NCBI GenBank assembly: GCA_028866155.1
Contig: JAGWIT010000001.1
Location: 165 to 64,164 of the forward strand
Reading direction: 5' to 3'
DNA from: Patescibacteria group bacterium
GTDB taxonomy: Bacteria; Patescibacteriota; Minisyncoccia; Phycocordibacterales; SBAW01
DNA length: 64,000 bases
Below the pieces are notes generated by a model. The model saw nothing but the letters and a program-made list of their open reading frames with translations, was not told the origin of the DNA and searched no databases. This document shows, in pieces, positions 13,903-63,542 of this stretch (the first letter of the stretch is position 1; every line of letters begins with the position of its first letter). A program made the position numbers and the translations under genes.

Positions 13903-16968
<3,066 letters not shown>

Positions 16969-26871: not shown

Positions 26872-33750
<6,879 letters not shown>

Positions 33751-41285: not shown

Positions 41286-42203
41286 TTATTTTTTCTGGTT
41301 TTTAATCTGTATTTTTTGCAGTGCTTTCGTCACGATGGGCAGCACGTCGTCATAGAAGTTGAGTTCCAAAGCGTCCTGCAAACGAAACCACTTTGCGTCA
41401 TCGAGCCCCCCGGTCTGCTTCAGCGTAATCTCGGCGTACGGTGACTCGGCCAAAAAATACGTCACCTGCTTGCGCTTCTTCCCCACCTCCGGGTCCGAAG
41501 CGATATATTCGTTGTCACCGACCTTTTCCTTAAGCGTGATATCAAGATTCATCTCCTCTTTTATCTCGCGGATAGTGCCTTCCTCGACGGTTTCATTGGC
41601 AATCTCGGGCTTGTCGCCTATCTTGCCCTTGCTTAGCGTCCAATGGCCAAAAATGTCGTGGACGACCGCGAGATATATGTCGCCTTGATGCCTGGCGTAC
41701 ACCACCGCGCCGCCGAGCTTCTCAACGGGCATCTGCGCGTAAGGCACGTCCTTCTTCTTTTTTGAGACTTCGTCCTTGCCGGGCTCGCCCAGCTCTTTGT
41801 AGACCGCGCCTAAGACGCCGTTGACAAAGCGGCCGCTGTTCTCGCCGCCGAAGCTTTTGGCAAGCTCTATCGCTTCGTTGATAGCGACTTTTGCCGGCAC
41901 CTTTTGCCGGTCGGAGAATAATAGTTCATATAACCCGAGACGCAAAACATTGCGGTCAACCGGCGCTATGCGCGAAAGAGGCCACTCGGGCGCGGCCTTT
42001 TCTATCACCAAATCCAAGTCAGAGCGGCGCGCGACCACCCCTTTAAGCAACTCTTCCATAAACGGCAAGTCGCCCGCCTGGGGGGCAAACTCGGCCGCGT
42101 TTCTTTCAAGTGCAAATTTCGCATCACCAGCAGTGATACTGCGAAAGTCCCACTCGAAGAGCGTCTGGAGGACGACCGATCGTGACAGGTGCCGGTTTGC
42201 CAT
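41286..42203 (-). CDS. nusB: NusB transcription antitermination factor fused to a C-terminal NUDIX-like hydrolase domain
   Basis: The N-terminal ~140 aa are classic NusB (VDRNVLRLGLYEL, VAINEAIELAKSFGGENSGRFVNGVL). The C-terminal ~150 aa carry a Nudix-box-like REIKEEMNL preceded by GKIGDKPE. Confidence 0.7.
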   Translation of the reverse strand: MANRHLSRSVVLQTLFEWDFRSITAGDAKFALERNAAEFAPQAGDLPFMEELLKGVVARRSDLDLVIEKAAPEWPLSRIAPVDRNVLRLGLYELLFSDRQKVPAKVAINEAIELAKSFGGENSGRFVNGVLGAVYKELGEPGKDEVSKKKKDVPYAQMPVEKLGGAVVYARHQGDIYLAVVHDIFGHWTLSKGKIGDKPEIANETVEEGTIREIKEEMNLDITLKEKVGDNEYIASDPEVGKKRKQVTYFLAESPYAEITLKQTGGLDDAKWFRLQDALELNFYDDVLPIVTKALQKIQIKNQKK

Positions 42204-42946: not shown

Positions 42947-43543
42947 CTATATCGCGGACTCGTACCATTTGCAATAACTGCGGCGGTGGATTTCGCTCAA
43001 GCCAAATTGCCGTATTGCGTCATAATGCATCTTTGTTCCGTATCCCTTGTGCGACTCAAAGCCGTAGTTAGGAAACTTTTTAGCCATGCGCTTCATCAAG
43101 CGGTCGCGCTCGACCTTGGCGGCTATCGAGGCGAGCGAAATTATAGGCTGTGATTCGTCGCCATTGATTATTGTTTCCTGAACATATTGAGATGGCGCGT
43201 ATAAAAGCCCGTCGAGTTTGATTGAAACGACCGCGGGCTCGGGCGCGAGCGCTCGCACGCCGCTGATGATGGCTTTTTTAACCGCTTTGGTGATGCCAAG
43301 CTCGTCGATTGTCAAATGATCTGAAAATCTCACGACAAACTCAATGTCGCCCGTTTTCTTGCGCCCGAGCAGCTGTTCATAAATTTCCTCGCGCGCACTT
43401 GCGGTCAATTGTTTTGAATCCTTAGTGCCCGGGAATTCTTTTAAAACATCAAAATTGAGCGGCACCCGGACAAACCCCACCGAAACCGGACCTGCCAAAG
43501 GCGCCCGTCCCGCCTCATCCACGCCAATGAGAAACTGGTGCAT
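42947..43543 (-). CDS. rnhB: Ribonuclease HII
   Basis: GVDEAGRAPLAGPV N-terminal catalytic motif. Confidence 0.85.
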   Translation of the reverse strand: MHQFLIGVDEAGRAPLAGPVSVGFVRVPLNFDVLKEFPGTKDSKQLTASAREEIYEQLLGRKKTGDIEFVVRFSDHLTIDELGITKAVKKAIISGVRALAPEPAVVSIKLDGLLYAPSQYVQETIINGDESQPIISLASIAAKVERDRLMKRMAKKFPNYGFESHKGYGTKMHYDAIRQFGLSEIHRRSYCKWYESAI

Positions 43544-43586
43544 TAGGACATTCTATCAGAACTGGCTCAAGAGAGGAGCGCGGGGG

Positions 43587-43592
43587 TATACT
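43587..43592 (+). promoter_or_regulatory. -10 hexamer TATACT 6 nt upstream of the dnaE ATG (leaderless)
   Basis: TATACT at 43587-43592, then CAAGCC, then ATG 43599. Confidence 0.45.
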
Positions 43593-43598
43593 CAAGCC

Positions 43599-46592
43599 AT
43601 GTCTGCGAAGTTCGTACACTTGCATGTCCATTCGCACTACACTCTGCTCGGCGCTCTGCCTAAAATCCCCGACTTGGTGAAGAAAGCGCAGGAGTTCGGA
43701 TGCACGGCGCTCGCTTTGACCGACAAGGACAACCTCTACGGCGCCATCGAATTTTATAAAGAGTGCAAAGCGGCGGGCCTCAAGCCCATTATCGGCCTTG
43801 ACGCGAGCGTCGATGGCAATAAACGACTCCTCTTATATGCGCAAAATCTCGAAGGGTACAAAAATCTGCTCGCGCTGGTGACCAAGTCGCACATGCAGGC
43901 GGACGAAAAGCCGCTGGTGACCAAAGAGATGCTCGCCGAGCACCGTGACGGGCTCATTATGCTCGATCCAGGCACCCGCGAGGCGGCATTAAGCGAAATT
44001 TATTATCTTCGCCCCGACGACCGCCGCGCGTGGGAGACGATGCGGGCTATCGAGCATGGAGCGGCCGGTGACAACGGCGACATCGACGCGGCCGGCGAAA
44101 ACTTCTACTTCCCTTCCGACAAAGAGATGGAGGAGCGCTTCACCCCCAAGCAGTTAGAAAAGACGCTCGCCATCGCCGACGAGTGCAATCTTGAGCTCAC
44201 CATCGGAAAATTCATCTTCCCCGAGTTCCCTTTGCCAAAAGGAGTCGGCGCCGACGAGTATTTGCGCGACCTGTGCATGAAAGGTTTGAAGGCGCGGGGG
44301 TTTGAGGACCGTGCCGACGTTCTCCTGCGCCTCAACTATGAACTCGACATCATTAAGTTTAAAGGATACGCGGCGTACTTTTTGGTCGTCGAGGATCTCA
44401 TCCGCTTCGCACACGAGCACGGCATCTACTCGACCATCCGCGGCTCGGTCGCGGGTTCGATGACCACCTACGTGCTTAATATCACGACCATCGACCCGCT
44501 CGCATACAAAATCCCGTTCGAGCGGTTCCTCAACCCCGAGCGGCCCTCCGCGCCCGACATCGACATGGACTTCGCCGACGACCGGCGCGACGAAGTGATA
44601 GGGTACGCGCGCAAAAAATACGGCGAGGACAAGGTCGCGCAGATAGGCACCTTCGGCACGATGCTTGCGCGCGGCGTCGTCCGCGACGTCGCGCGCGCTT
44701 TGGGCCACCCCTACGGCACCGGCGACCGTATAGCCAAAGAGATCCCCTTCGGCTCGCAGGGCTTCCCGATGACGCTCGAGCGCGCTCTTGAGGAAAATCC
44801 CGAACTGGCAAAAATATATAAAAGCGAAAAGGATGCAAAAGAGATCATCGACCTCGGCAAAAAAATAGAAGGATGCGCGCGGCATATCTCGGTGCACGCC
44901 GCCGGCGTCGTCATCGCTCCGCACCCGCTCATCGAGTATGCGCCGCTCCAGCTCGACCCTAAGGGCGGCAAAATAATCACTCAGTACGACATGTACTCGG
45001 TCGGCGAGGATGGCGTCGGTCTCACCAAGTTCGACTTTTTAGGCATCCGAAACCTCTCCATCCTCGCCTCAGCAGTCGAGCTGGTCAAAACAACGCGCGG
45101 CAAAAATATCGATATCGAGAACATACCCATCGACGACAAAAAAACATACGAGATGCTCACCGTGGGCCATACCGAGGGCACCTTTCAGCTCAACGGCGCG
45201 GGGATGACGCGGTTTCTCAAAGAGCTGAGGCCGACAACGATACATGACATCAACGCGATGGTAGCGCTGTTTCGCCCGGGCCCGATGCAATTCATCCCGC
45301 AGTACATCGAGCGCAAGCACAACCCCGCGCTCATCCGCTACATGGACCCCGCCATGGAGCCTATCCTCAAACAAACCTATGGCATCTTGGTATATCAGGA
45401 CGACTTGCTCATCATGGCACATGACCTTGCCGGCTACAGCTGGGGCGACGTCGACAAGTTCCGCAAGGCGGTCGGCAAAAAGATCCCCGCCGAGATGGAG
45501 GCGCAGAAAGAAAAGTTCATCAAGGGCTGCGTCGAACACTCACAATGGCCGCGCGCCAAAGCCGAGCTAGTGTGGGCGTGGATTGAGCCCTTTGCCGCGT
45601 ATGGGTTCAACAAAGCCCACGCGGCAAGCTATGGCAAAGTCGCCTATCAAACCGCATACCTGAAGGCCAACTTCCCCGTCGAATATATGGCGGCCGTGCT
45701 CACCGCGGAGGCGGGCGATGTCGACACGGTCTCTATCATGGTCGCGGAGTGCAAGCGCATGGGCATCCCCGTCTTGCCGCCCGATGTCAACGAAAGCTTT
45801 GGCGACTTTACCGTATTGCTGGGGCCCGGCGCCGGGCGCAGTAAAAAGGCCGCAGCGCTCGCGGGAGACATTGACCGTGACTCTATCCGCTTCGGCCTCT
45901 ACTCTATTAAGAACTTCGGCCGCGGCATCGCCGATGCCATCATCAGCGAACGCAAAGCGAGCGGCAAATTCAAAACGCTCTCCGACTTTTTGCGGCGCGT
46001 CAAAGATCAAAATTTAAATAAGAAGGCACTCGAGAGTTTAATCGAGTGCGGCGCGCTGGACAGTCTTGGCGAGCGCGGCGCCATGCTCGCCAACATCGAG
46101 CGCCTGCTGGAGTATCACCGCGAAGCGACCAGAGAGCACTCGCAGGACTCGCTCTTTTTGGGTTTGGGCAATGCGGTGAGCGACGTCACTCTCTCGCCCG
46201 CCGCCGAGGCGACGCTGGCCGACCGCTTGAAGTGGGAAAAAGAACTGCTCGGCCTGTATGTTTCGGGACATCCGCTCGATAAGTTCCGCGACAAACTTTT
46301 GAAGCGCCCGATGACGCTCAACGAGGTCAAAATAAAGATCCCGCCCGGCACCACTGCCGTTATCGCCGGTATGATAGAGGATATTCGCACCATCCTCACC
46401 AAAGGCGGCGACCAGATGGCGTTCGTGAAGCTCGCCGACTTCGACGGCTCTATCGAGGCCGTCGTCTTCCCCAAAAACTTCGCCGAATATAAAAATATCC
46501 TAAAGCCCGAGTCCTGCGTCGCCATGAAAGGGCGGCTTTCAAACCGCAACGGTGAGCTGTCGTTGGTTGCTGAACAACTCAAGAGCCTATAA
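43599..46592 (+). CDS. dnaE: DNA polymerase III alpha subunit (DnaE-type, compact ~997 aa)
   Basis: N-terminal PHP domain (VHLHVHSHYTLLGA), the polymerase core, and a C-terminal OB fold. The start is ATG 43599 (MSAKFVHL). Confidence 0.85.
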   Translation: MSAKFVHLHVHSHYTLLGALPKIPDLVKKAQEFGCTALALTDKDNLYGAIEFYKECKAAGLKPIIGLDASVDGNKRLLLYAQNLEGYKNLLALVTKSHMQADEKPLVTKEMLAEHRDGLIMLDPGTREAALSEIYYLRPDDRRAWETMRAIEHGAAGDNGDIDAAGENFYFPSDKEMEERFTPKQLEKTLAIADECNLELTIGKFIFPEFPLPKGVGADEYLRDLCMKGLKARGFEDRADVLLRLNYELDIIKFKGYAAYFLVVEDLIRFAHEHGIYSTIRGSVAGSMTTYVLNITTIDPLAYKIPFERFLNPERPSAPDIDMDFADDRRDEVIGYARKKYGEDKVAQIGTFGTMLARGVVRDVARALGHPYGTGDRIAKEIPFGSQGFPMTLERALEENPELAKIYKSEKDAKEIIDLGKKIEGCARHISVHAAGVVIAPHPLIEYAPLQLDPKGGKIITQYDMYSVGEDGVGLTKFDFLGIRNLSILASAVELVKTTRGKNIDIENIPIDDKKTYEMLTVGHTEGTFQLNGAGMTRFLKELRPTTIHDINAMVALFRPGPMQFIPQYIERKHNPALIRYMDPAMEPILKQTYGILVYQDDLLIMAHDLAGYSWGDVDKFRKAVGKKIPAEMEAQKEKFIKGCVEHSQWPRAKAELVWAWIEPFAAYGFNKAHAASYGKVAYQTAYLKANFPVEYMAAVLTAEAGDVDTVSIMVAECKRMGIPVLPPDVNESFGDFTVLLGPGAGRSKKAAALAGDIDRDSIRFGLYSIKNFGRGIADAIISERKASGKFKTLSDFLRRVKDQNLNKKALESLIECGALDSLGERGAMLANIERLLEYHREATREHSQDSLFLGLGNAVSDVTLSPAAEATLADRLKWEKELLGLYVSGHPLDKFRDKLLKRPMTLNEVKIKIPPGTTAVIAGMIEDIRTILTKGGDQMAFVKLADFDGSIEAVVFPKNFAEYKNILKPESCVAMKGRLSNRNGELSLVAEQLKSL

Positions 46593-46663
46593 TCATTGAC
46601 AATTCATGAGTTTTAAGCTACCATTTCAACTGGACTTATTCACCGTTCAAGGGAGAAAATCAG

Positions 46664-46858
46664 ATGATCTTTGGATCTTGGCAAAAGTGCCGGTGCGGCA
46701 CTCAGTTTAGAACCGAAAGATGTCCGACCTGTTTTCCGAGCACGCGACCTTTGTCGTCGCGGACAGGAAGCGCCAACCCCCCAGCAAGTTCCGAACCGTT
46801 CCCAATAAACAAGGAACGTGGAGAATCCGAAGAAAACTTTTTCAAAAACCAGCAGTGA
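46664..46858 (+). CDS. Small protein (64 aa) with an N-terminal Cys cluster (C-x-C-x8-C-x2-C) and a disordered tail
   Basis: SD GGGAG lies 8 nt upstream of ATG 46664. A candidate promoter TTGACA(46596)-17-TACCAT lies further upstream. A strong terminator follows the stop. Confidence 0.35.
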   Translation: MIFGSWQKCRCGTQFRTERCPTCFPSTRPLSSRTGSANPPASSEPFPINKERGESEENFFKNQQ

Positions 46859-46863
46859 CCCAA

Positions 46864-46907
46864 CGCCTGACTAAACAGCACCCGCTGTCGTCAGGCGATT
46901 TCTTTTG
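46864..46907 (+). terminator. Intrinsic terminator (nested GC-rich hairpin plus ATTTCTTTTG)
   Basis: CGCCTGAC...GTCAGGCG 8-bp outer stem with an inner CAGC-ACCC-GCTG hairpin, followed by a U-rich tract. Confidence 0.55.
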
Positions 46908-46946
46908 CCAAAAAAATAAACCGCGGTAGTATAAGAAACAATCATC

Positions 46947-48173
46947 ATGGAGGAGCGCGACCACAAGAAGCTGGGCCCCGAACTTGAGCTTTTTTATATT
47001 GATCAGACAGTCGGTAAAGGGCTGCCTATGTTTTTACCTAAGGGCGCAACGCTCAAGCGCGAGCTCGAACGGTTTGTGATAGAAGAAGAGCTCAAGCGCG
47101 GCTATCTCCATGTGCATACGCCCGACCTGGCAAAGCTCGAACTATACGAAAAAAGCGGTCACTACCCTCACTACAAAGATTCGATGTACGCGCCTATTGA
47201 AATAGACGACGAGAAGTACATGCTGCGCCCGATGACCTGTCCGCATCATTTTCAGCTTTATCTCTCCAAACCACACAGCTATCGCGAACTTCCCATGCGT
47301 ATCGCAGAGCTCGCGCAACTCTACCGTTATGAGCAATCGGGCGAGCTTATGGGCCTGCAGCGGGTACGCACCTTTTGCCTTGCGGACGCCCATATTATCT
47401 GTGCCGACGAAGAGCAAGCGGCCGACGAGGTAAGCAATGCGCTCGATCTTATCGAACACATGGCCGGCGTCTTTGGTCTCAAGCTAGAAGCAGACTACCG
47501 TTTCCGCCTCTCACTCGGCGACCGCGCCAATACCGAAAAATATTATAAAAATGACGCAGCGTGGGAAAAGAGCGAGGGACTGTTGCGCGAGGTTATGCAA
47601 AAGCGCGGCGAAAAGTTTGAAGAAGCAAAGGATGAAGCCGCATTTTATGGGCCCAAGATTGACGTGCAGATGAAGAATGTTAACGGCAAAGAAGACACGG
47701 CCTTTACCGTTCAATATGACTTTTGCATGCCCGACCGCTTCAATCTCACCTACGTGGGCGAAGACGGCAAAGATCATCGCGCCTTTGTCGTGCATCGCTC
47801 TTCAATAGGCGCCATCGAACGCATCATGGCTTTTCTTATCGAGAAGTATGCGGGCGCGTTCCCTCTTTGGCTCTCGCCAGTGCAGGCGCGCATACTCCCG
47901 ATTGCCGGCACGCATAAAGATTTTGCTCAAAATGTTTTAAGTCAATTCAAACAGGCCGGCATCCGAGCCGAGCTCGACGAGAGCAACGAGACGCTCGGCA
48001 AAAAGATACGCGAGGCCAAAACGCAAAAGATCCCCTATATGCTGGTCATTGGCGACCAAGAAGTGGCCTACAAAACCGCGACACTCGAGAGCCGCGATAA
48101 AGGCAAAATCGGGACGCTTTCAATAGACGAAATCGTTTCAAAGTTGAATGAAGAAATAAAGGCACGGGTATAA
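46947..48173 (+). CDS. thrS: Threonyl-tRNA synthetase, catalytic core plus anticodon-binding domain only (N-terminal TGS/editing domains absent)
   Basis: The protein starts at the ThrRS core motif (RDHKKLG, class II motifs) and runs through the anticodon-binding domain. At 408 aa it is about 230 aa shorter than canonical ThrRS at the N-terminus. Confidence 0.75.
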   Translation: MEERDHKKLGPELELFYIDQTVGKGLPMFLPKGATLKRELERFVIEEELKRGYLHVHTPDLAKLELYEKSGHYPHYKDSMYAPIEIDDEKYMLRPMTCPHHFQLYLSKPHSYRELPMRIAELAQLYRYEQSGELMGLQRVRTFCLADAHIICADEEQAADEVSNALDLIEHMAGVFGLKLEADYRFRLSLGDRANTEKYYKNDAAWEKSEGLLREVMQKRGEKFEEAKDEAAFYGPKIDVQMKNVNGKEDTAFTVQYDFCMPDRFNLTYVGEDGKDHRAFVVHRSSIGAIERIMAFLIEKYAGAFPLWLSPVQARILPIAGTHKDFAQNVLSQFKQAGIRAELDESNETLGKKIREAKTQKIPYMLVIGDQEVAYKTATLESRDKGKIGTLSIDEIVSKLNEEIKARV

Positions 48174-48258: not shown

Positions 48259-49254
48259 TTAAGCCGTTCGGCTTCTAGGGCGGTTTATCTGCGAGAGAAT
48301 AAAATCATCTATCACATCCTCCTGTGTCGATTGAATCGGTGCGCTTACTTGCACCGCAGACGGGTTAAGGATGGCCGCTATCTGTTGGGCGAGCGCGTTA
48401 ATGTCGAGTGCGGCTTGCGAAGGCGAACCTTGCTGGACGCGAACGCCGACGGAGTCTGCGACGGAGGGTGAGCGGGAAGCAAGGTTCGCCGAAGCATTGC
48501 CGAAAAGAAAGTTCTTCATCGCGCGGAAGATGCGATTTTGCACGCGCTTGACGACGATGAGGTAGGCTGCGGCGAGGCACCAGAGGATAAGGAATCCCCA
48601 GTACGCTATCGTGCCCCAAAAGCCGAGGTCAAGACCGGTGTACGGCACCGCCGAGAGCGAGACATACGGAGTGCTGTTGTAAGCAATGGGCTGAGGGCAC
48701 ACCGGATAGCCGATACAGCCGCACGTGTTGCAGACCGGGGTCGGATTATTATAAACGACCGGCGGATTATTGTAGATGACAGGCTGGGGTGCCGGGTTGG
48801 TGACAGTAGTAACCGTCGTCGGCGAGCTCACCGTCGTGTTGCAGCTGTTGATCGCAGTGCACGAGTTGCCGTTGTCGATGACATTGGTGTTGACGTTGGT
48901 ATTTGAAGGAAGGTAAGAAGAACCGAGATATCCGCCGCCCATGAGATATCCGCCGCCGAGATACGAGCTGGTCATGTAGCCTGAGGAGCCCAAGTAATCG
49001 GAGGAGTATGAAGAGGGGTAATAATCCATGGAGCCGTAGTTGGCGGGATAATAATCCATGGAGCCATAGCTGGTTGGATAGTAATCCATGGAGCCATAGT
49101 CGGTGGTAGTGGGATAATAATCCATGGAGCCATAGTTACCGAAATCGTCCGCATGAGCAGGAGCGGCAGCGAAGGCGAGCGGGAGTATCATCAAAATTGC
49201 CGCCATAGAAGCGATACCGAGATTGCGAGACATAATTTTACTAAGCGTATTCAT
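48259..49254 (-). CDS. Surface protein with four YGSMDYYP tandem repeats, a Ser/Thr/Asn-rich region, a Cys-rich segment, a VPYTG motif before a TM helix, and a 94-aa cytoplasmic tail
   Basis: Signal peptide. Repeats at aa 41-80. The stretch AVPYTGLDLGFWGTIAYWGFLILWCLAAAYLIVVKR resembles a sortase sorting signal. SD GGAG and a TTGACA-17-TACAAG promoter lie upstream. Confidence 0.55.
   Translation of the reverse strand: MNTLSKIMSRNLGIASMAAILMILPLAFAAAPAHADDFGNYGSMDYYPTTTDYGSMDYYPTSYGSMDYYPANYGSMDYYPSSYSSDYLGSSGYMTSSYLGGGYLMGGGYLGSSYLPSNTNVNTNVIDNGNSCTAINSCNTTVSSPTTVTTVTNPAPQPVIYNNPPVVYNNPTPVCNTCGCIGYPVCPQPIAYNSTPYVSLSAVPYTGLDLGFWGTIAYWGFLILWCLAAAYLIVVKRVQNRIFRAMKNFLFGNASANLASRSPSVADSVGVRVQQGSPSQAALDINALAQQIAAILNPSAVQVSAPIQSTQEDVIDDFILSQINRPRSRTA
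49015..49134 (-). repeat. Four ~30-bp in-frame tandem repeats encoding YGSMDYYP
   Basis: Repeated CCATGGAGCCATAG(T/C)... units are visible on the plus strand at 49020-49140. Confidence 0.7.
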
Positions 49255-56306: not shown

Positions 56307-58145
56307 TTACCTGATTTCGAAGCCCTTTTCTTTGAGCGCGGCGGAGATTTTGTCCATAATCGCGTTCACTTCAATTTCGGTGAGCGTGCGGTCGAAGGAT
56401 TGAAAGATGAGGCGGTATGCAACCGACATCCTCCCCTCTTTTTCAAATTTATCAAAATATGTTCCTCCAGATATAAATATTCGAAGCCCAAGTGACTGCG
56501 GCCCAGTAAGCACATCAGTAATTATTGAACCAACACCGTGTTCGTCATAACCTTCTGGCTTCCATAAAGCAATATCACGTACGATATACGGATATTTTGA
56601 GAACGGTTGGTAACGCGTTGCTTGGGAGAGCGGGAGCTCGTCGTAGTATGACCGCTGGTCAAGCGGCTTTTGATAGGAGCTCAGCGGGATTTCTTTTGCC
56701 TCTTCTTTTTCGCCGACGGTGCCGACCATTATCTCTTCTTTGCCGCCCTGCCATACGGCACCTATCTCGAACAGTTTTATTTCCGGCAGATTCAGCAGAT
56801 ATTTATTGGGGATGTTTTTTTGGAGCGCTTCTTTGAGATTCTCGACGAGCGTTGAGCGCAGGTAGGGCTTGGTGCCGTCGACCTTGTTGAGCACGATGCG
56901 CTCGCCTTTGTCAGCAAAAACCGACGTATACACCTCGCTGTACCCTTGCGTCATCAAATCCTCACGGACCTTTTCGCTCCAATAAAAAGCCGGGTTGAGC
57001 TCGGGCTCCATGTCGGCAGGCGGCAATTCTTTGGCGGGAATTTTGTCATATCCGATGATGCGCGCCGCTTCTTCTATAAGATCCTCTTCTATCAAAAGAT
57101 CGAGCCGCTGGAACGGGATCTCAACGGTGACCGTGTCGTCCTGCTTTTGATACTTAAAACCCAGCCGCTCGAACGCGCGGATGATATCGCTCTGTGCGAT
57201 TGAGCTGCCGAGCAGGCGCCGCGCATGCGCGATTGAGAGCGCCACGGCGGAGGGCTTTTGCGGGATATTATACTTATCGACAAAACCTATCAGCTCCCCG
57301 TCGGCGAGTTTTTGTATCAGCTCGGCCACAGCCTGCATGCCAAAGCCCGCCAACTCGGGCGAGAGACCTTGCTCGAAGCGAGCGCTCGCGTCGGTGCGCA
57401 GCTTCAGCGCCTGTGCGGAACGGCGCACCGCAGAGCCGTCAAAATTGGCCGACTCAATGATGATGTCTTTGGTGGTCTCATCAATTGCGGCCGGCATACC
57501 TCCCTTGACTCCCGCTATGCCGACCGGCGCGCCCCCGGCGGTAATAACAGGCATGGAGTCTTTGAGCACGTAGCTTTTCTTGTCGAGCGCCACCACCACC
57601 ACCTCGCCGTCTTTGGCCGCGCGCACGCCGATATCGAGGCTGCCGAGCTTGCCCGCGTCGAACGCATGCAGCGGCTGGCCCAGGTTGAACATCACAAAGT
57701 TGGTCGCATCAACAATGTTATTAATTGAACGCTGACCCACTGCCGTCAGTCTGTCCTGCAGCCACTGCGGCGAAGGCTCGACTTTTACATTTTTAATGTA
57801 GCCGGCAATGTAACGCGGGCACAATTCTGCAGTCTCTATCGAAACAGACACCACATCGGTTTTTGGCAGCAGCGCGGGCTTTTGGGCAAGCGGGTCATGC
57901 GCGAGCGGGATATTGAGTATCGCCGAAAGCTCTCCCGCGACCCCGCGGTGCGAGAGCGCATCGTGCCCGCGGTTGGGGGTTATTTTGACATCAAGCACTT
58001 GATCTTCTATGTTAGACCCACGAGGTCGAACAGTTTCGATACCCTCAATTTCGAATGCATGGAACGTGAGCGCTTCGGCAAGAGCCTCAGCATTTGGCAA
58101 CGCTGTGTCGAAAAATTTAGTGAGCCAGAGGCGCGAGACTTTCAT
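56307..58145 (-). CDS. pheT: Phenylalanyl-tRNA synthetase beta subunit (compact, 612 aa)
   Basis: MKVSRLWLTKFFD N-terminus, a B3/B4 domain, and the class II-like core. It is co-oriented with pheS, adjacent with a 1-nt gap. Confidence 0.8.
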   Translation of the reverse strand: MKVSRLWLTKFFDTALPNAEALAEALTFHAFEIEGIETVRPRGSNIEDQVLDVKITPNRGHDALSHRGVAGELSAILNIPLAHDPLAQKPALLPKTDVVSVSIETAELCPRYIAGYIKNVKVEPSPQWLQDRLTAVGQRSINNIVDATNFVMFNLGQPLHAFDAGKLGSLDIGVRAAKDGEVVVVALDKKSYVLKDSMPVITAGGAPVGIAGVKGGMPAAIDETTKDIIIESANFDGSAVRRSAQALKLRTDASARFEQGLSPELAGFGMQAVAELIQKLADGELIGFVDKYNIPQKPSAVALSIAHARRLLGSSIAQSDIIRAFERLGFKYQKQDDTVTVEIPFQRLDLLIEEDLIEEAARIIGYDKIPAKELPPADMEPELNPAFYWSEKVREDLMTQGYSEVYTSVFADKGERIVLNKVDGTKPYLRSTLVENLKEALQKNIPNKYLLNLPEIKLFEIGAVWQGGKEEIMVGTVGEKEEAKEIPLSSYQKPLDQRSYYDELPLSQATRYQPFSKYPYIVRDIALWKPEGYDEHGVGSIITDVLTGPQSLGLRIFISGGTYFDKFEKEGRMSVAYRLIFQSFDRTLTEIEVNAIMDKISAALKEKGFEIR

Positions 58146-58146
58146 A

Positions 58147-58941
58147 TTAAAATTGGTCGATGAAGCGCAGGTCGGCCGAGTGCATCAGGCGCACGTCGTC
58201 TATGCCCCAGCGCAAGAGCGCCAAGCGGTCGAGTCCCATGCCGAAGGCAAACCCGCGGTAGAGGCTCGGGTCGAGTCCGGAGTTCTCTAACACGTTCGGA
58301 TGCACCATGCCGGCGCCCATCATCTCTATCCATTTGTCGCGCAGCTTCTCCGGCACCTGCTCGCCCACCAAACGCATATCTACCTCGACGCTCGGCTCGG
58401 TGAACGGAAAGAAGCTGGGGCGAAAGCGTATCTCGACCTGCGCAGTTTTGAACAGATCCTTAAAAAAATGTTCGAGCGTACCCTTAAGATGTTCAAGCGT
58501 GATATCTTTGCCGACCGCCAAACCCTCAATTTGAAAAAACTCCGCCTCATGCGTCATGTCAGTCGCCTCGTTGCGGAACACTTTGCCGGGGACGATGACG
58601 CGGTAAGGCGGCGCTATCCCCTTTTTTATCTGCAACTCCATGTAGCGCACCTGCACCGGCGAGGTGTGCGTGCGCAAAACCATCCCCGGCTCATCCTTGA
58701 TAAAGAACGTGTCCTGCATGTCGCGTGCAGGGTGGTCTTTGGGGACATTGAGCGCGTCAAAGTTGTACCACTCGGTCTCAACGAGCGGGCCTTCGGCAAA
58801 CGTGAAGCCCATTTGAAAGAATATCCGGTTGGCCTCGCGGATAAGCGAGGATATGGGGTGGATGTGGCCCAGCTTTTCGGCAGAAAGACCATTAGAAGCA
58901 GTGCGGCGTTCCATCATCGCAGTATAGCCATATTTTAGCAA
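58147..58941 (-). CDS. pheS: Phenylalanyl-tRNA synthetase alpha subunit (compact, no N-terminal coiled coil)
   Basis: Class II motifs (FQMGFTFAEGP, HPARDMQDTFF, GFAFGMGLDRLA). The listed start is a TTG at 58941. ATGs at 58917/58914 are alternatives. Confidence 0.8.
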   Translation of the reverse strand: MLKYGYTAMMERRTASNGLSAEKLGHIHPISSLIREANRIFFQMGFTFAEGPLVETEWYNFDALNVPKDHPARDMQDTFFIKDEPGMVLRTHTSPVQVRYMELQIKKGIAPPYRVIVPGKVFRNEATDMTHEAEFFQIEGLAVGKDITLEHLKGTLEHFFKDLFKTAQVEIRFRPSFFPFTEPSVEVDMRLVGEQVPEKLRDKWIEMMGAGMVHPNVLENSGLDPSLYRGFAFGMGLDRLALLRWGIDDVRLMHSADLRFIDQF

Positions 58942-60895: not shown

Positions 60896-60906
60896 CAAAA
60901 AATCGG

Positions 60907-60979
60907 AGCCACCGCGAGGAATCGAACCCCGGACCAACGCTTTACAAAAGCGCCGCTCTACCAACTGAGCTACGGTGGC
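60907..60979 (-). tRNA. tRNA-Thr (anticodon UGU)
   Basis: Reverse complement: GCCACCG-TA-GCTC-AGTTGGTA-GAGC-G-GCGCT-TTTGTAA-AGCGT-TGGTC-CGGGG-TTCGATT-CCTCG-CGGTGGC-T. This gives a 7-bp acceptor stem, a D arm, an anticodon stem-loop with TGT, and a T arm with GTTCGATTCC. CCA is not encoded. Confidence 0.85.
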
Positions 60980-62651: not shown

Positions 62652-63542
62652 TCACGACGCAACCTCCTCTTGTGCCGCTTCAAGCGCATCTAAAACCGGC
62701 CCGAGGTTGCCGGCCAAAATGCCCGGCAAATTGTGCCAGCTCTCTTTGAGCCGGTGGTCGGTCAGGCGGTCTTGCAGGCTGTTGTAGGTGCGGATCTTCT
62801 CGCTACGGTCGCCGGTGCCAATTTGACCTTTGCGCAGTTCGGCGTGTTTTTTTGCCTCCTCTTCTTCCTGCAGGGCCTCGAGCTTGGCCATGAGCACGGC
62901 CATCGCGCGCTCGCGGTTGGCGTTCTGCGAGCGCTCCTCCTGCGAGCGCGCCTCAAGGCCGGTCGGGCGGTGGACCAAACGCACGGCCGTCTCGACCTTG
63001 TTGACGTTTTGGCCGCCGGCGCCGCCCGCGCGCGAAAACTCCATGTCGATGTCGGCCGGATTTAAATCAAATTTGTGTTTTTTGCGGATGGGCAAAATAG
63101 CGACCGATGCGGTCGAGGTGTGGATGCGGCCGGATTTCTCGGTCGCGGGTACGCGCTGTATCCGGTGCACGCCGGTCTCAAAGCGCAGGCGCTTGTAGAC
63201 GCCGAGGCCCTTTATCTCGAACGCGGCCTCTTTGTAGCCGCCGAGGTCGGTCTTGCTCTCATACAGCGTGCGGACATGCCATACCTGCTGTGCCGCATAG
63301 GCGCGATACATCGTGGCCAATTGCTCGGCAAACAAAGCCGCCTCTTCGCCGCCGGCGCCCGCGCGCACCTCGAGCACCGCCTCGTTGGGGAATTCTTCGC
63401 TCCCCTCTTCTTCTTTCAGAATGGCATCCATTTGGGTAATGAGCTCCTGCCTATCCGACTCGTTGCTCAAATATTGCAACGTGGCCGCCATGTAGGCGGT
63501 CTTGGGGTTGCTTTTGTAGCGGGAGAGGTCCGCCTCGTTCAT
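62652..63542 (-). CDS. prfA: Peptide chain release factor 1 (short N-terminal domain)
   Basis: PAT tripeptide ([14 protein letters not shown]) and GGQ motif ([20 protein letters not shown]). Confidence 0.8.

Follow-up and report, generated by a model that had tools for sequence, protein, structure and literature searches.

We describe a threonyl-tRNA synthetase (ThrRS) gene, thrS, found in a 64,000-nt stretch of contig JAGWIT010000001.1 from a Patescibacteria group bacterium (assembly GCA_028866155.1; the whole stretch is called the window below). The gene encodes a genuine, intact ThrRS of 408 amino acids (aa) without a proofreading domain, and the truncation is fixed across a large clade of Patescibacteria (Kaiser-, Adler- and Nomurabacteria, Paceibacterota). 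The explanation that we favor, with a probability of roughly 60%, is that editing in cis was lost without a dedicated replacement, the fidelity of the enzyme being either relaxed or handled in the active site. To our knowledge, editing of Ser-tRNA-Thr by ThrRS is regarded as near-universal in bacteria, and the natural ThrRSs without editing that we know of are mainly those of yeast mitochondria, Crenarchaeota (which have a trans factor) and Mollicutes.

NCBI lists the exact 408-aa protein as 'MAG: threonine--tRNA ligase [Patescibacteria group bacterium]' (MAG, metagenome-assembled genome), encoded on a 78.7-kb contig. It scores 495.8 bits with the NCBIfam equivalog TIGR00418 (thrS; cut-off value: 383.65), and the alignment spans only positions 170–564 of the 565 positions of the profile, leaving 1–169 unmatched. 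Pfam reports just PF00587 (residues 87–301, E = 1.3e-31) and PF03129 (residues 313–402, E = 1.7e-24), and neither PF02824 (the N1 TGS domain) nor PF07973 (tRNA_SAD, the N2 editing domain) has a match in the window ThrRS. In alignments to PDB chains, residues 2–406 correspond to residues 239–641 of the Staphylococcus aureus ThrRS (1nyq, E = 1e-125) and residues 3–407 to residues 241–635 of the Escherichia coli ThrRS (1qf6). The catalytic domain opens with the RDH(K/R)K motif, and the protein starts two residues ahead of it, at about E. coli residue 241. By all three comparisons (Pfam, TIGR00418 and PDB), the N1 and N2 region of ~240 residues is absent, which bears out what an earlier reading of the bare sequence (the original prediction) had claimed, namely that this ThrRS opens at the catalytic core with the TGS and editing domains missing. 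Alignment to bacterial and archaeal ThrRSs, which had been proposed as a check, shows the enzyme to be of the bacterial type; the archaeal profile NF003068 gives 249 bits (cut-off value: 484).

The short form is shared by the relatives of the window ThrRS. The 120 nearest database proteins (79–100% identity) are all 406–434 aa long and contain only PF00587 and PF03129; the N-terminus MEERDHKK is common to them, and 69 of the 120 start exactly with MEERDHKKLGPE. We also scanned one genome per GTDB species, which gave 192 pattern-confirmed relatives, and the species figures reported here rest on the best 80 of these 192. These 80 (from 80 species) are full-length matches with 71–87% identity, including one on a complete 617-kb chromosome, and in 80 out of 80 species the frame 5' of residue 1 is open for just 0–144 codons. 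They are labeled as Kaiserbacteria, Adlerbacteria, Nomurabacteria, Paceibacterota, Minisyncoccia and Parcubacteria, together with many 'uncultured Candidatus Saccharibacteria' MAGs (we suspect that this last label is generic). The identity of 71–100% across the 80 species and the 120 nearest proteins indicates that the short thrS is under strong purifying selection.

To examine how N2 was lost, we searched 1.84 billion cluster representatives exhaustively with HMMER. The search returned 13,718 ThrRS-like matches, and the 129 complete representatives among the best 150 of them were used for length classes and for a neighbor-joining (NJ) tree of the catalytic core. Short forms (at most 40 residues before the core) account for 17 of the 129, nine keep a stump of 58–143 residues, and 103 have at least 150 residues before the core, many of them only 150–210, which corresponds to N2 without TGS. 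Loss of N1 seems to be widespread among the ThrRSs near the window enzyme (P0121–P0270), many long forms from the candidate phyla radiation included, and older than the loss of N2. In the tree, short forms sit at a dozen or more scattered places, each beside long forms; one of them, P0176, is the 413-aa short ThrRS of Candidatus Hepatoplasma, a mollicute. Short ThrRSs thus appear to have arisen many times elsewhere in the ThrRS tree.

The nearest relatives of the window ThrRS outside the short clade are ThrRSs with N2 from bacteria of the candidate phyla radiation (CPR), among which the full-length P0122 and P0124 share 57–59% identity with it. In the tree, P0123 (short) and P0121 (526 aa) join the window clade, and the sisters of this group are P0122, P0124 and P0125 and, in addition, P0126, P0128, P0129 and P0132. 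According to the alignment of the N-terminal regions, these proteins form a series of decay stages: both N2 motifs (HxxxH and CxxxH) and a match to PF07973 are found in P0122, P0124 and P0125; the second motif is gone in P0128, and both are gone in P0126 and P0132; in P0121, an internal deletion has removed the entire middle of N2, and the motifs are lost as well; and N2 is altogether absent from P0123 and the window clade. P0121 lies on a 511-kb contig in the gene order of the window (SMC, RNase III, NusB-NUDIX, RNase HII, dnaE, thrS, gyrB). Since P0121 still has part of N2 and stands at the same locus, the short gene would descend from the resident thrS and not from an acquired paralogue, and in-situ decay of the ancestral resident gene is most likely the way in which N2 was lost. 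In the sisters, N2 domains with dead motifs are still attached, so that selection on ThrRS editing was presumably relaxed before the deletion, which favors loss.

The residues expected in a working ThrRS are retained. C98, H149 and H283 (their equivalents are given in Table 1), D147 (S. aureus D385) and R127 (S. aureus R365) are each at least 97% conserved among 240 aligned short and long ThrRSs; we take these to be the active-site zinc triad, the Asp that reads the hydroxyl of Thr, and the motif-2 Arg, respectively. By these residues, the window ThrRS looks functional. Few positions are at least 95% fixed in the short clade and differ from the majority of the long forms, namely K7, A279, V282 and E381, where most long forms have Arg, Pro, Ile and Arg, respectively. 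A279 and V282 stand just before the zinc ligand His283. E381 (codon 48087–48089) falls at the position of E. coli R609 in an ungapped alignment to E. coli residues 536–635; Glu is found there in 100% of the short clade as well as in P0121 and P0123, i.e. on the same branch as the loss of editing, and Arg in 92% of the long forms. R583, E600 and R609 have been described as strictly conserved binders of the anticodon loop in ThrRS (PMC6430810). The equivalents of R583 and E600 (R355 and E372) are kept in the window ThrRS, and R383 stands two residues past E381. If the catalytic core has evolved better rejection of serine or pre-transfer editing, A279/V282 and E381 would be candidate adaptations.

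In the favored explanation, the window enzyme is the housekeeping ThrRS, naturally reduced to the catalytic core and the anticodon-binding domain. It would dimerize, reject valine via the active-site zinc, and charge tRNA-Thr (G1-C72, C2-G71, G35, U36) like other bacterial ThrRSs. In other ThrRSs, Ser is misactivated in about 1 of 1000 activations, and the zinc site rejects Val. Post-transfer editing in cis would be impossible for the short enzyme because the only known ThrRS site that hydrolyzes Ser-tRNA-Thr is gone (N2 is the only such site in bacterial ThrRS according to the review PMC11295145). Serine misacylation might then simply be tolerated, as in Mycoplasma and other bacteria with reduced genomes, or it might be partly limited by hydrolysis of seryl adenylate (Ser-AMP) in the synthetic site, as in the yeast mitochondrial ThrRS. 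That the whole class-level lineage (Paceibacteria; at least 80 species) is devoid of any Ser-tRNA-Thr editing, cis or trans, is a broader claim that we make tentatively, at somewhat less than even odds.

By analogy, the yeast mitochondrial ThrRS (MST1 or ScmtThrRS; PDB 3UGQ, 3UH0 and 4EO4) would be the best functional model for the window ThrRS. It has the same architecture (core and anticodon-binding domain only, with the editing domain wholly missing); it misactivates Ser, and pre-transfer editing in its synthetic site clears the Ser-AMP (PMC4267643). MST1 is however no close relative (3ugq scores 214 bits against the window ThrRS, as compared to 423 bits for the S. aureus ThrRS), so the truncation is independent, with no common descent with the fungal mitochondrial ThrRS. 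Moreover, MST1 works in an organelle with only a handful of protein products whereas the window ThrRS serves a whole cellular proteome, and the special recognition of tRNA-Thr1 by MST1 has no counterpart in the window ThrRS. The E. coli delta-N ThrRS (residues 242–642; PDB 1EVK, 1EVL, 1FYF and 1KOG) has near-identical boundaries, with residues 4–407 of the window ThrRS aligned to residues 1–394 of the 401-residue construct. Reportedly (work of Dock-Bregeon et al. in Cell, 2000), this construct aminoacylates tRNA-Thr yet mischarges serine. It is a laboratory construct, whereas the truncation in the window is natural and lineage-fixed, and comes with K7, A279, V282 and E381 (for E. coli R609).

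Two further groups of natural systems are comparable. In the split ThrRS of Crenarchaeota (e.g. A. pernix ThrRS-1, PDB 3A31), the catalytic enzyme likewise has no editing domain, and ThrRS-ed acts as a free-standing editing partner (PMC11295145). The window ThrRS differs from this system in being of the bacterial type (see the NF003068 score above); NF011500 hits only the shared anticodon-binding domain of the window ThrRS (76.7 bits; cut-off value: 362), and no ThrRS-ed partner (NF011500 or DTD-like) is found among the ORFs (open reading frames) of the window. Editing domains of aminoacyl-tRNA synthetases (aaRSs) are degenerate or lost in Mycoplasma and in host-restricted bacteria with small genomes, according to PMC10057733 and PMC7373986. 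The Mollicutes and other reduced-genome bacteria show the same pattern, degeneration of the editing domain followed by its deletion in very small genomes. The window lineage belongs to a different phylum (Patescibacteria), where the NJ tree points to an independent loss, and it has kept the editing domain of its phenylalanyl-tRNA synthetase (PheRS), unlike the broader losses reported for Mycoplasma.

The strongest alternative is that editing has moved in trans. Ser-tRNA-Thr would be cleared by a free-standing deacylase from another place in the genome (a tRNA_SAD protein of the AlaX/N2 type, an INS protein of the ProXp-ST1/ST2 type, or an archaeal-type ThrRS-ed), and the short ThrRS would be the catalytic half of a split system like the crenarchaeal one. 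We consider this unlikely, but its probability is not negligible. Such systems do exist: besides the crenarchaeal pair of ThrRS-cat and ThrRS-ed, ProXp-ST1 and ProXp-ST2 hydrolyze Ser-tRNA-Thr with broad tRNA specificity (PMC11295145). In the window, however, no tRNA_SAD, YbaK/INS or DTD-like domain is found by Pfam in the ~50 ORFs; three of the genes (rpoD, a glycoside-hydrolase-like gene and a truB-like gene) were judged by eye only, and none of them resembles an editing factor. No editing-factor gene lies within 3 kb of thrS in the 80 species either. We built a hidden Markov model (HMM) of N2 from 58 intact N2 domains, which recovered the controls (L005, L006, L007 and the remnant in L008, E = 1e-13), and this HMM finds no N2-like sequence in the six frames of the window or in the 80 thrS loci. 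A database search for free-standing N2 with the nearest intact N2 (residues 1–197 of P0124) gave only pieces of at most 345 aa, mostly partial ThrRSs. Two of these pieces, checked on long contigs (L005 and L006), turned out to be N2 ORFs directly before a catalytic ORF, i.e. split or frameshifted thrS genes. No piece was found on the same contig as a short thrS. For Paceibacteria themselves, the search is uninformative. Furthermore, N2 domains that are attached but have destroyed motifs, as seen in the sisters, are a signature of relaxed selection and not of relocation, and the tRNA-Thr found here has U73, whereas ProXp-ST2 prefers A73 (PMC11295145). The original prediction had offered a trans-editing factor and relaxed fidelity side by side; these were the right alternatives, and the evidence (the N2 decay series and the remnant at the same locus) favors loss, with a trans factor excluded only in the window and in the neighborhoods of thrS.

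Some observations weigh against loss without replacement. The scans for a trans factor, including the search for a free-standing editing domain that had been proposed with the original prediction, covered the 64 kb of the window and ~7 kb around thrS in the relatives; a free-standing deacylase of the AlaX, ProXp-ST or N2 type may be encoded outside these regions. PheRS beta, encoded in the same genome, has retained a B3/4 editing domain that is well conserved (with motifs such as QPLHAFD), so quality control has not been abandoned in general and fidelity may still be under selection, which leaves room for a solution in trans. The NJ tree behind the decay series is unbootstrapped and is built on cluster representatives of unknown taxonomy. 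Finally, the replacement of a conserved anticodon-contact Arg (E. coli R609) by Glu381 is a feature for which we found no explanation.

Another alternative is that the short gene is an auxiliary or resistance-type paralogue, with the housekeeping role filled by a full-length ThrRS from another locus. Duplicated ThrRS genes occur in other bacteria, e.g. the T1/T2 pair of cyanobacteria (PMC4787780), and full-length relatives of the window ThrRS do exist (P0122 and P0124). P0124, however, is found in a different genomic context, whereas the short gene stands amid core housekeeping genes in conserved synteny, at the very locus where its orthologue still carries the N2 remnant. The strong purifying selection indicated by the sequence identities also argues against a paralogue, as do the sizes of the relatives' genomes (~0.5–0.65 Mb), since aaRS duplicates are rare in genomes this small. 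We therefore regard a paralogue as very improbable.

That a wrong start, a frameshift or a misassembly removed the N-terminal coding region has next to no probability: split or frameshifted thrS calls are known in metagenome assemblies (L005 and L006), but here the frame is stopped four codons 5' of the ATG, a search of all frames finds no N2-like sequence in the whole window, the 354-nt dnaE–thrS spacer included, and more than 100 independent assemblies and 80 species share an identical architecture. With the in-frame TAA four codons away and the end of dnaE 354 nt away, there is no room for N1 or N2 upstream of thrS. An upstream in-frame extension, which a corrected sequence might have revealed, is excluded by this stop codon, by the same start and length in the 120 nearest proteins, and by the short open frames in the 80 species. 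As for the split calls, thrS in L005 (6001–7726) and in L006 (6001–7799) consists of two adjoining ORFs, the first encoding N2 (and the start of the core) and the second the remaining core and the anticodon-binding domain; this may reflect a frameshift, an assembly error, recoding of a stop codon or a gene that is truly split.

The features of the locus are listed in Table 1. The order dnaE–thrS is found in 68 of 84 related loci, and also in L001, L003 and L008. Within the spacer, the terminator-like hairpin would separate thrS from upstream transcription, and thrS is probably transcribed from a promoter of its own into an mRNA with almost no leader: the promoter match ends 14 nt from the ATG, so the 5' untranslated region would be very short, and no Shine-Dalgarno sequence is found before the ATG. 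Apart from the hairpin and a partly conserved promoter block, the spacer is unlike that of L001 (a relative whose ThrRS is 81% identical), and among relatives the length of the spacer ranges from 9 to 1761 nt. Given this variable length, the little conservation and the lack of an Rfam match, the spacer does not appear to hold a conserved regulatory element. A T-box, a thrS operator or another leader RNA was rejected (no Rfam match even at E <= 1, and no conservation with L001). So was a decayed N2 relic: the size of the spacer fits the 115-aa remnant of P0121, but the best E-value in tblastn/blastn searches is ~0.06 (in a tiny database) and the length is variable. Two small ORFs in the spacer (46664–46858 and 46720–46929) were rejected as genes, as the ORF in L001 is unrelated and L003 has none. 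The first of them (+ strand, 64 aa) encodes a zinc-ribbon-like CxC-x9-CxxC pattern; it is not conserved in L001 or L003 and is probably no gene.

The tRNA-Thr(UGU) is the sole tRNA and the sole Rfam match in the window. It has the usual bacterial identity set (G1-C72, C2-G71, U73, and the anticodon U34 G35 U36). The original prediction had placed it about 13 kb from thrS, in agreement with the 12.7 kb found here. The link between the two genes that its title implied finds no support: they are on opposite strands, about ten unrelated genes lie between them (including gyrB, pheT, pheS and a glycosyltransferase gene), and the tRNA-Thr is ordinary.

Table 1. Features of the thrS locus and the tRNA-Thr gene (coordinates are positions in the window).
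Feature	Position	Strand	Basis or remark
thrS, N-terminally minimal ThrRS of 408 aa (stop codon included)	46947..48173	+	ORF with ATG start; TIGR00418
Class II aaRS catalytic core, Pfam match (residues 87–301)	47205..47849	+	PF00587; the conserved core in fact starts from residue 3 (RDHKK)
HGTP anticodon-binding domain (residues 313–402)	47883..48152	+	PF03129
Codon of Cys98, zinc ligand (S. aureus C336, E. coli C334)	47238..47240	+	Alignments
Codon of His149, zinc ligand (S. aureus H387, E. coli H385); Asp147 two codons earlier	47391..47393	+	Alignments
Codon of His283, zinc ligand (S. aureus H517, E. coli H511)	47793..47795	+	Alignments
In-frame TAA closing the frame, four codons 5' of the start codon	46932..46934	+	Sequence read directly
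dnaE (DNA polymerase III alpha), conserved 5' neighbor of thrS	43425..46592	+	Pfam
dnaE–thrS spacer, 354 nt, non-coding	46593..46946		No N2 relic, Rfam family or conserved small ORF
Stable hairpin (46864–46897) followed by a U-rich tract, terminator-like	46864..46906	+	-21.7 kcal/mol, z = -5.9 vs 200 shuffles
Sigma-70-like promoter match TTGCCA-16-TAGTAT, ending 14 nt before the ATG	46905..46932	+	9/12 consensus matches; consensus match only
tRNA-Thr(UGU), substrate type of ThrRS	60905..60979	-	ARAGORN; Rfam, 68 bits; sequence

Several other genes in the window are also of note. The ORF at 26872–33750 (- strand, 2292 aa) contains all RpoB (Rpb2) domains followed in frame by all RpoC (Rpb1) domains, i.e. 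a fused rpoB-rpoC with the junction ...MRAGSAVHNVRKTPGAEASDFDAVRIRPASPEKILEW...; such fusions are known in Helicobacter and Wolbachia. NusB (41286–42203, - strand, 305 aa) has a NUDIX hydrolase domain fused at its C-terminus, and this fusion is kept in three relatives (L001 2984–3916, L003 4345–5253 and L008 4883–5782). The large subunit of a class I ribonucleotide reductase (13903–16968, + strand) has two N-terminal ATP-cone matches. Among the translation genes, PheRS beta (56307–58145, - strand, 612 aa) starts from about residue 150 of canonical PheT, with the N-terminal B1/B2 domains missing and B3/4 kept, and PheRS alpha (58147–58941, - strand) has only 264 aa. Release factor 1 (RF1; 62652–63542, - strand), with its PAT and GGQ motifs, has only 296 aa; most of its domain 1 is apparently missing, since the PCRF match starts from profile position 72 and the L31 gene abuts the start of RF1. 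Directly 3' of thrS lies a gene (48259–49254, - strand) without a Pfam match; its product of 331 aa is predicted to be secreted or anchored in the membrane and has tandem YGSMDYYP(T/S/A) repeats along with segments rich in Gly/Tyr/Ser and in Cys. In relatives, this place is taken by unannotated genes of about the same length, also on the strand opposite to thrS.

A full-text search of the literature available to us found no paper linking CPR, Patescibacteria or Parcubacteria to the loss of ThrRS editing, and an earlier mention in primary survey work is possible. The finding changes no concept: the loss is expected from the trend seen in reduced genomes, and the proteins are already public as threonine--tRNA ligase. 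What it adds is a bacterial lineage, a large and abundant group of ultra-small Patescibacteria, in which intermediate stages of decay are found at the same locus, and it extends to the CPR the rule that reduced genomes shed aaRS proofreading. If the lineage indeed has no editing at all, it would represent cellular organisms outside Mollicutes with a constitutive Thr-to-Ser ambiguity, or its catalytic core would have better rejection of Ser or pre-transfer editing. In either case, these short ThrRSs offer a natural and well-sampled series for asking how much Thr-to-Ser mistranslation is tolerable, or how a bare core compensates.

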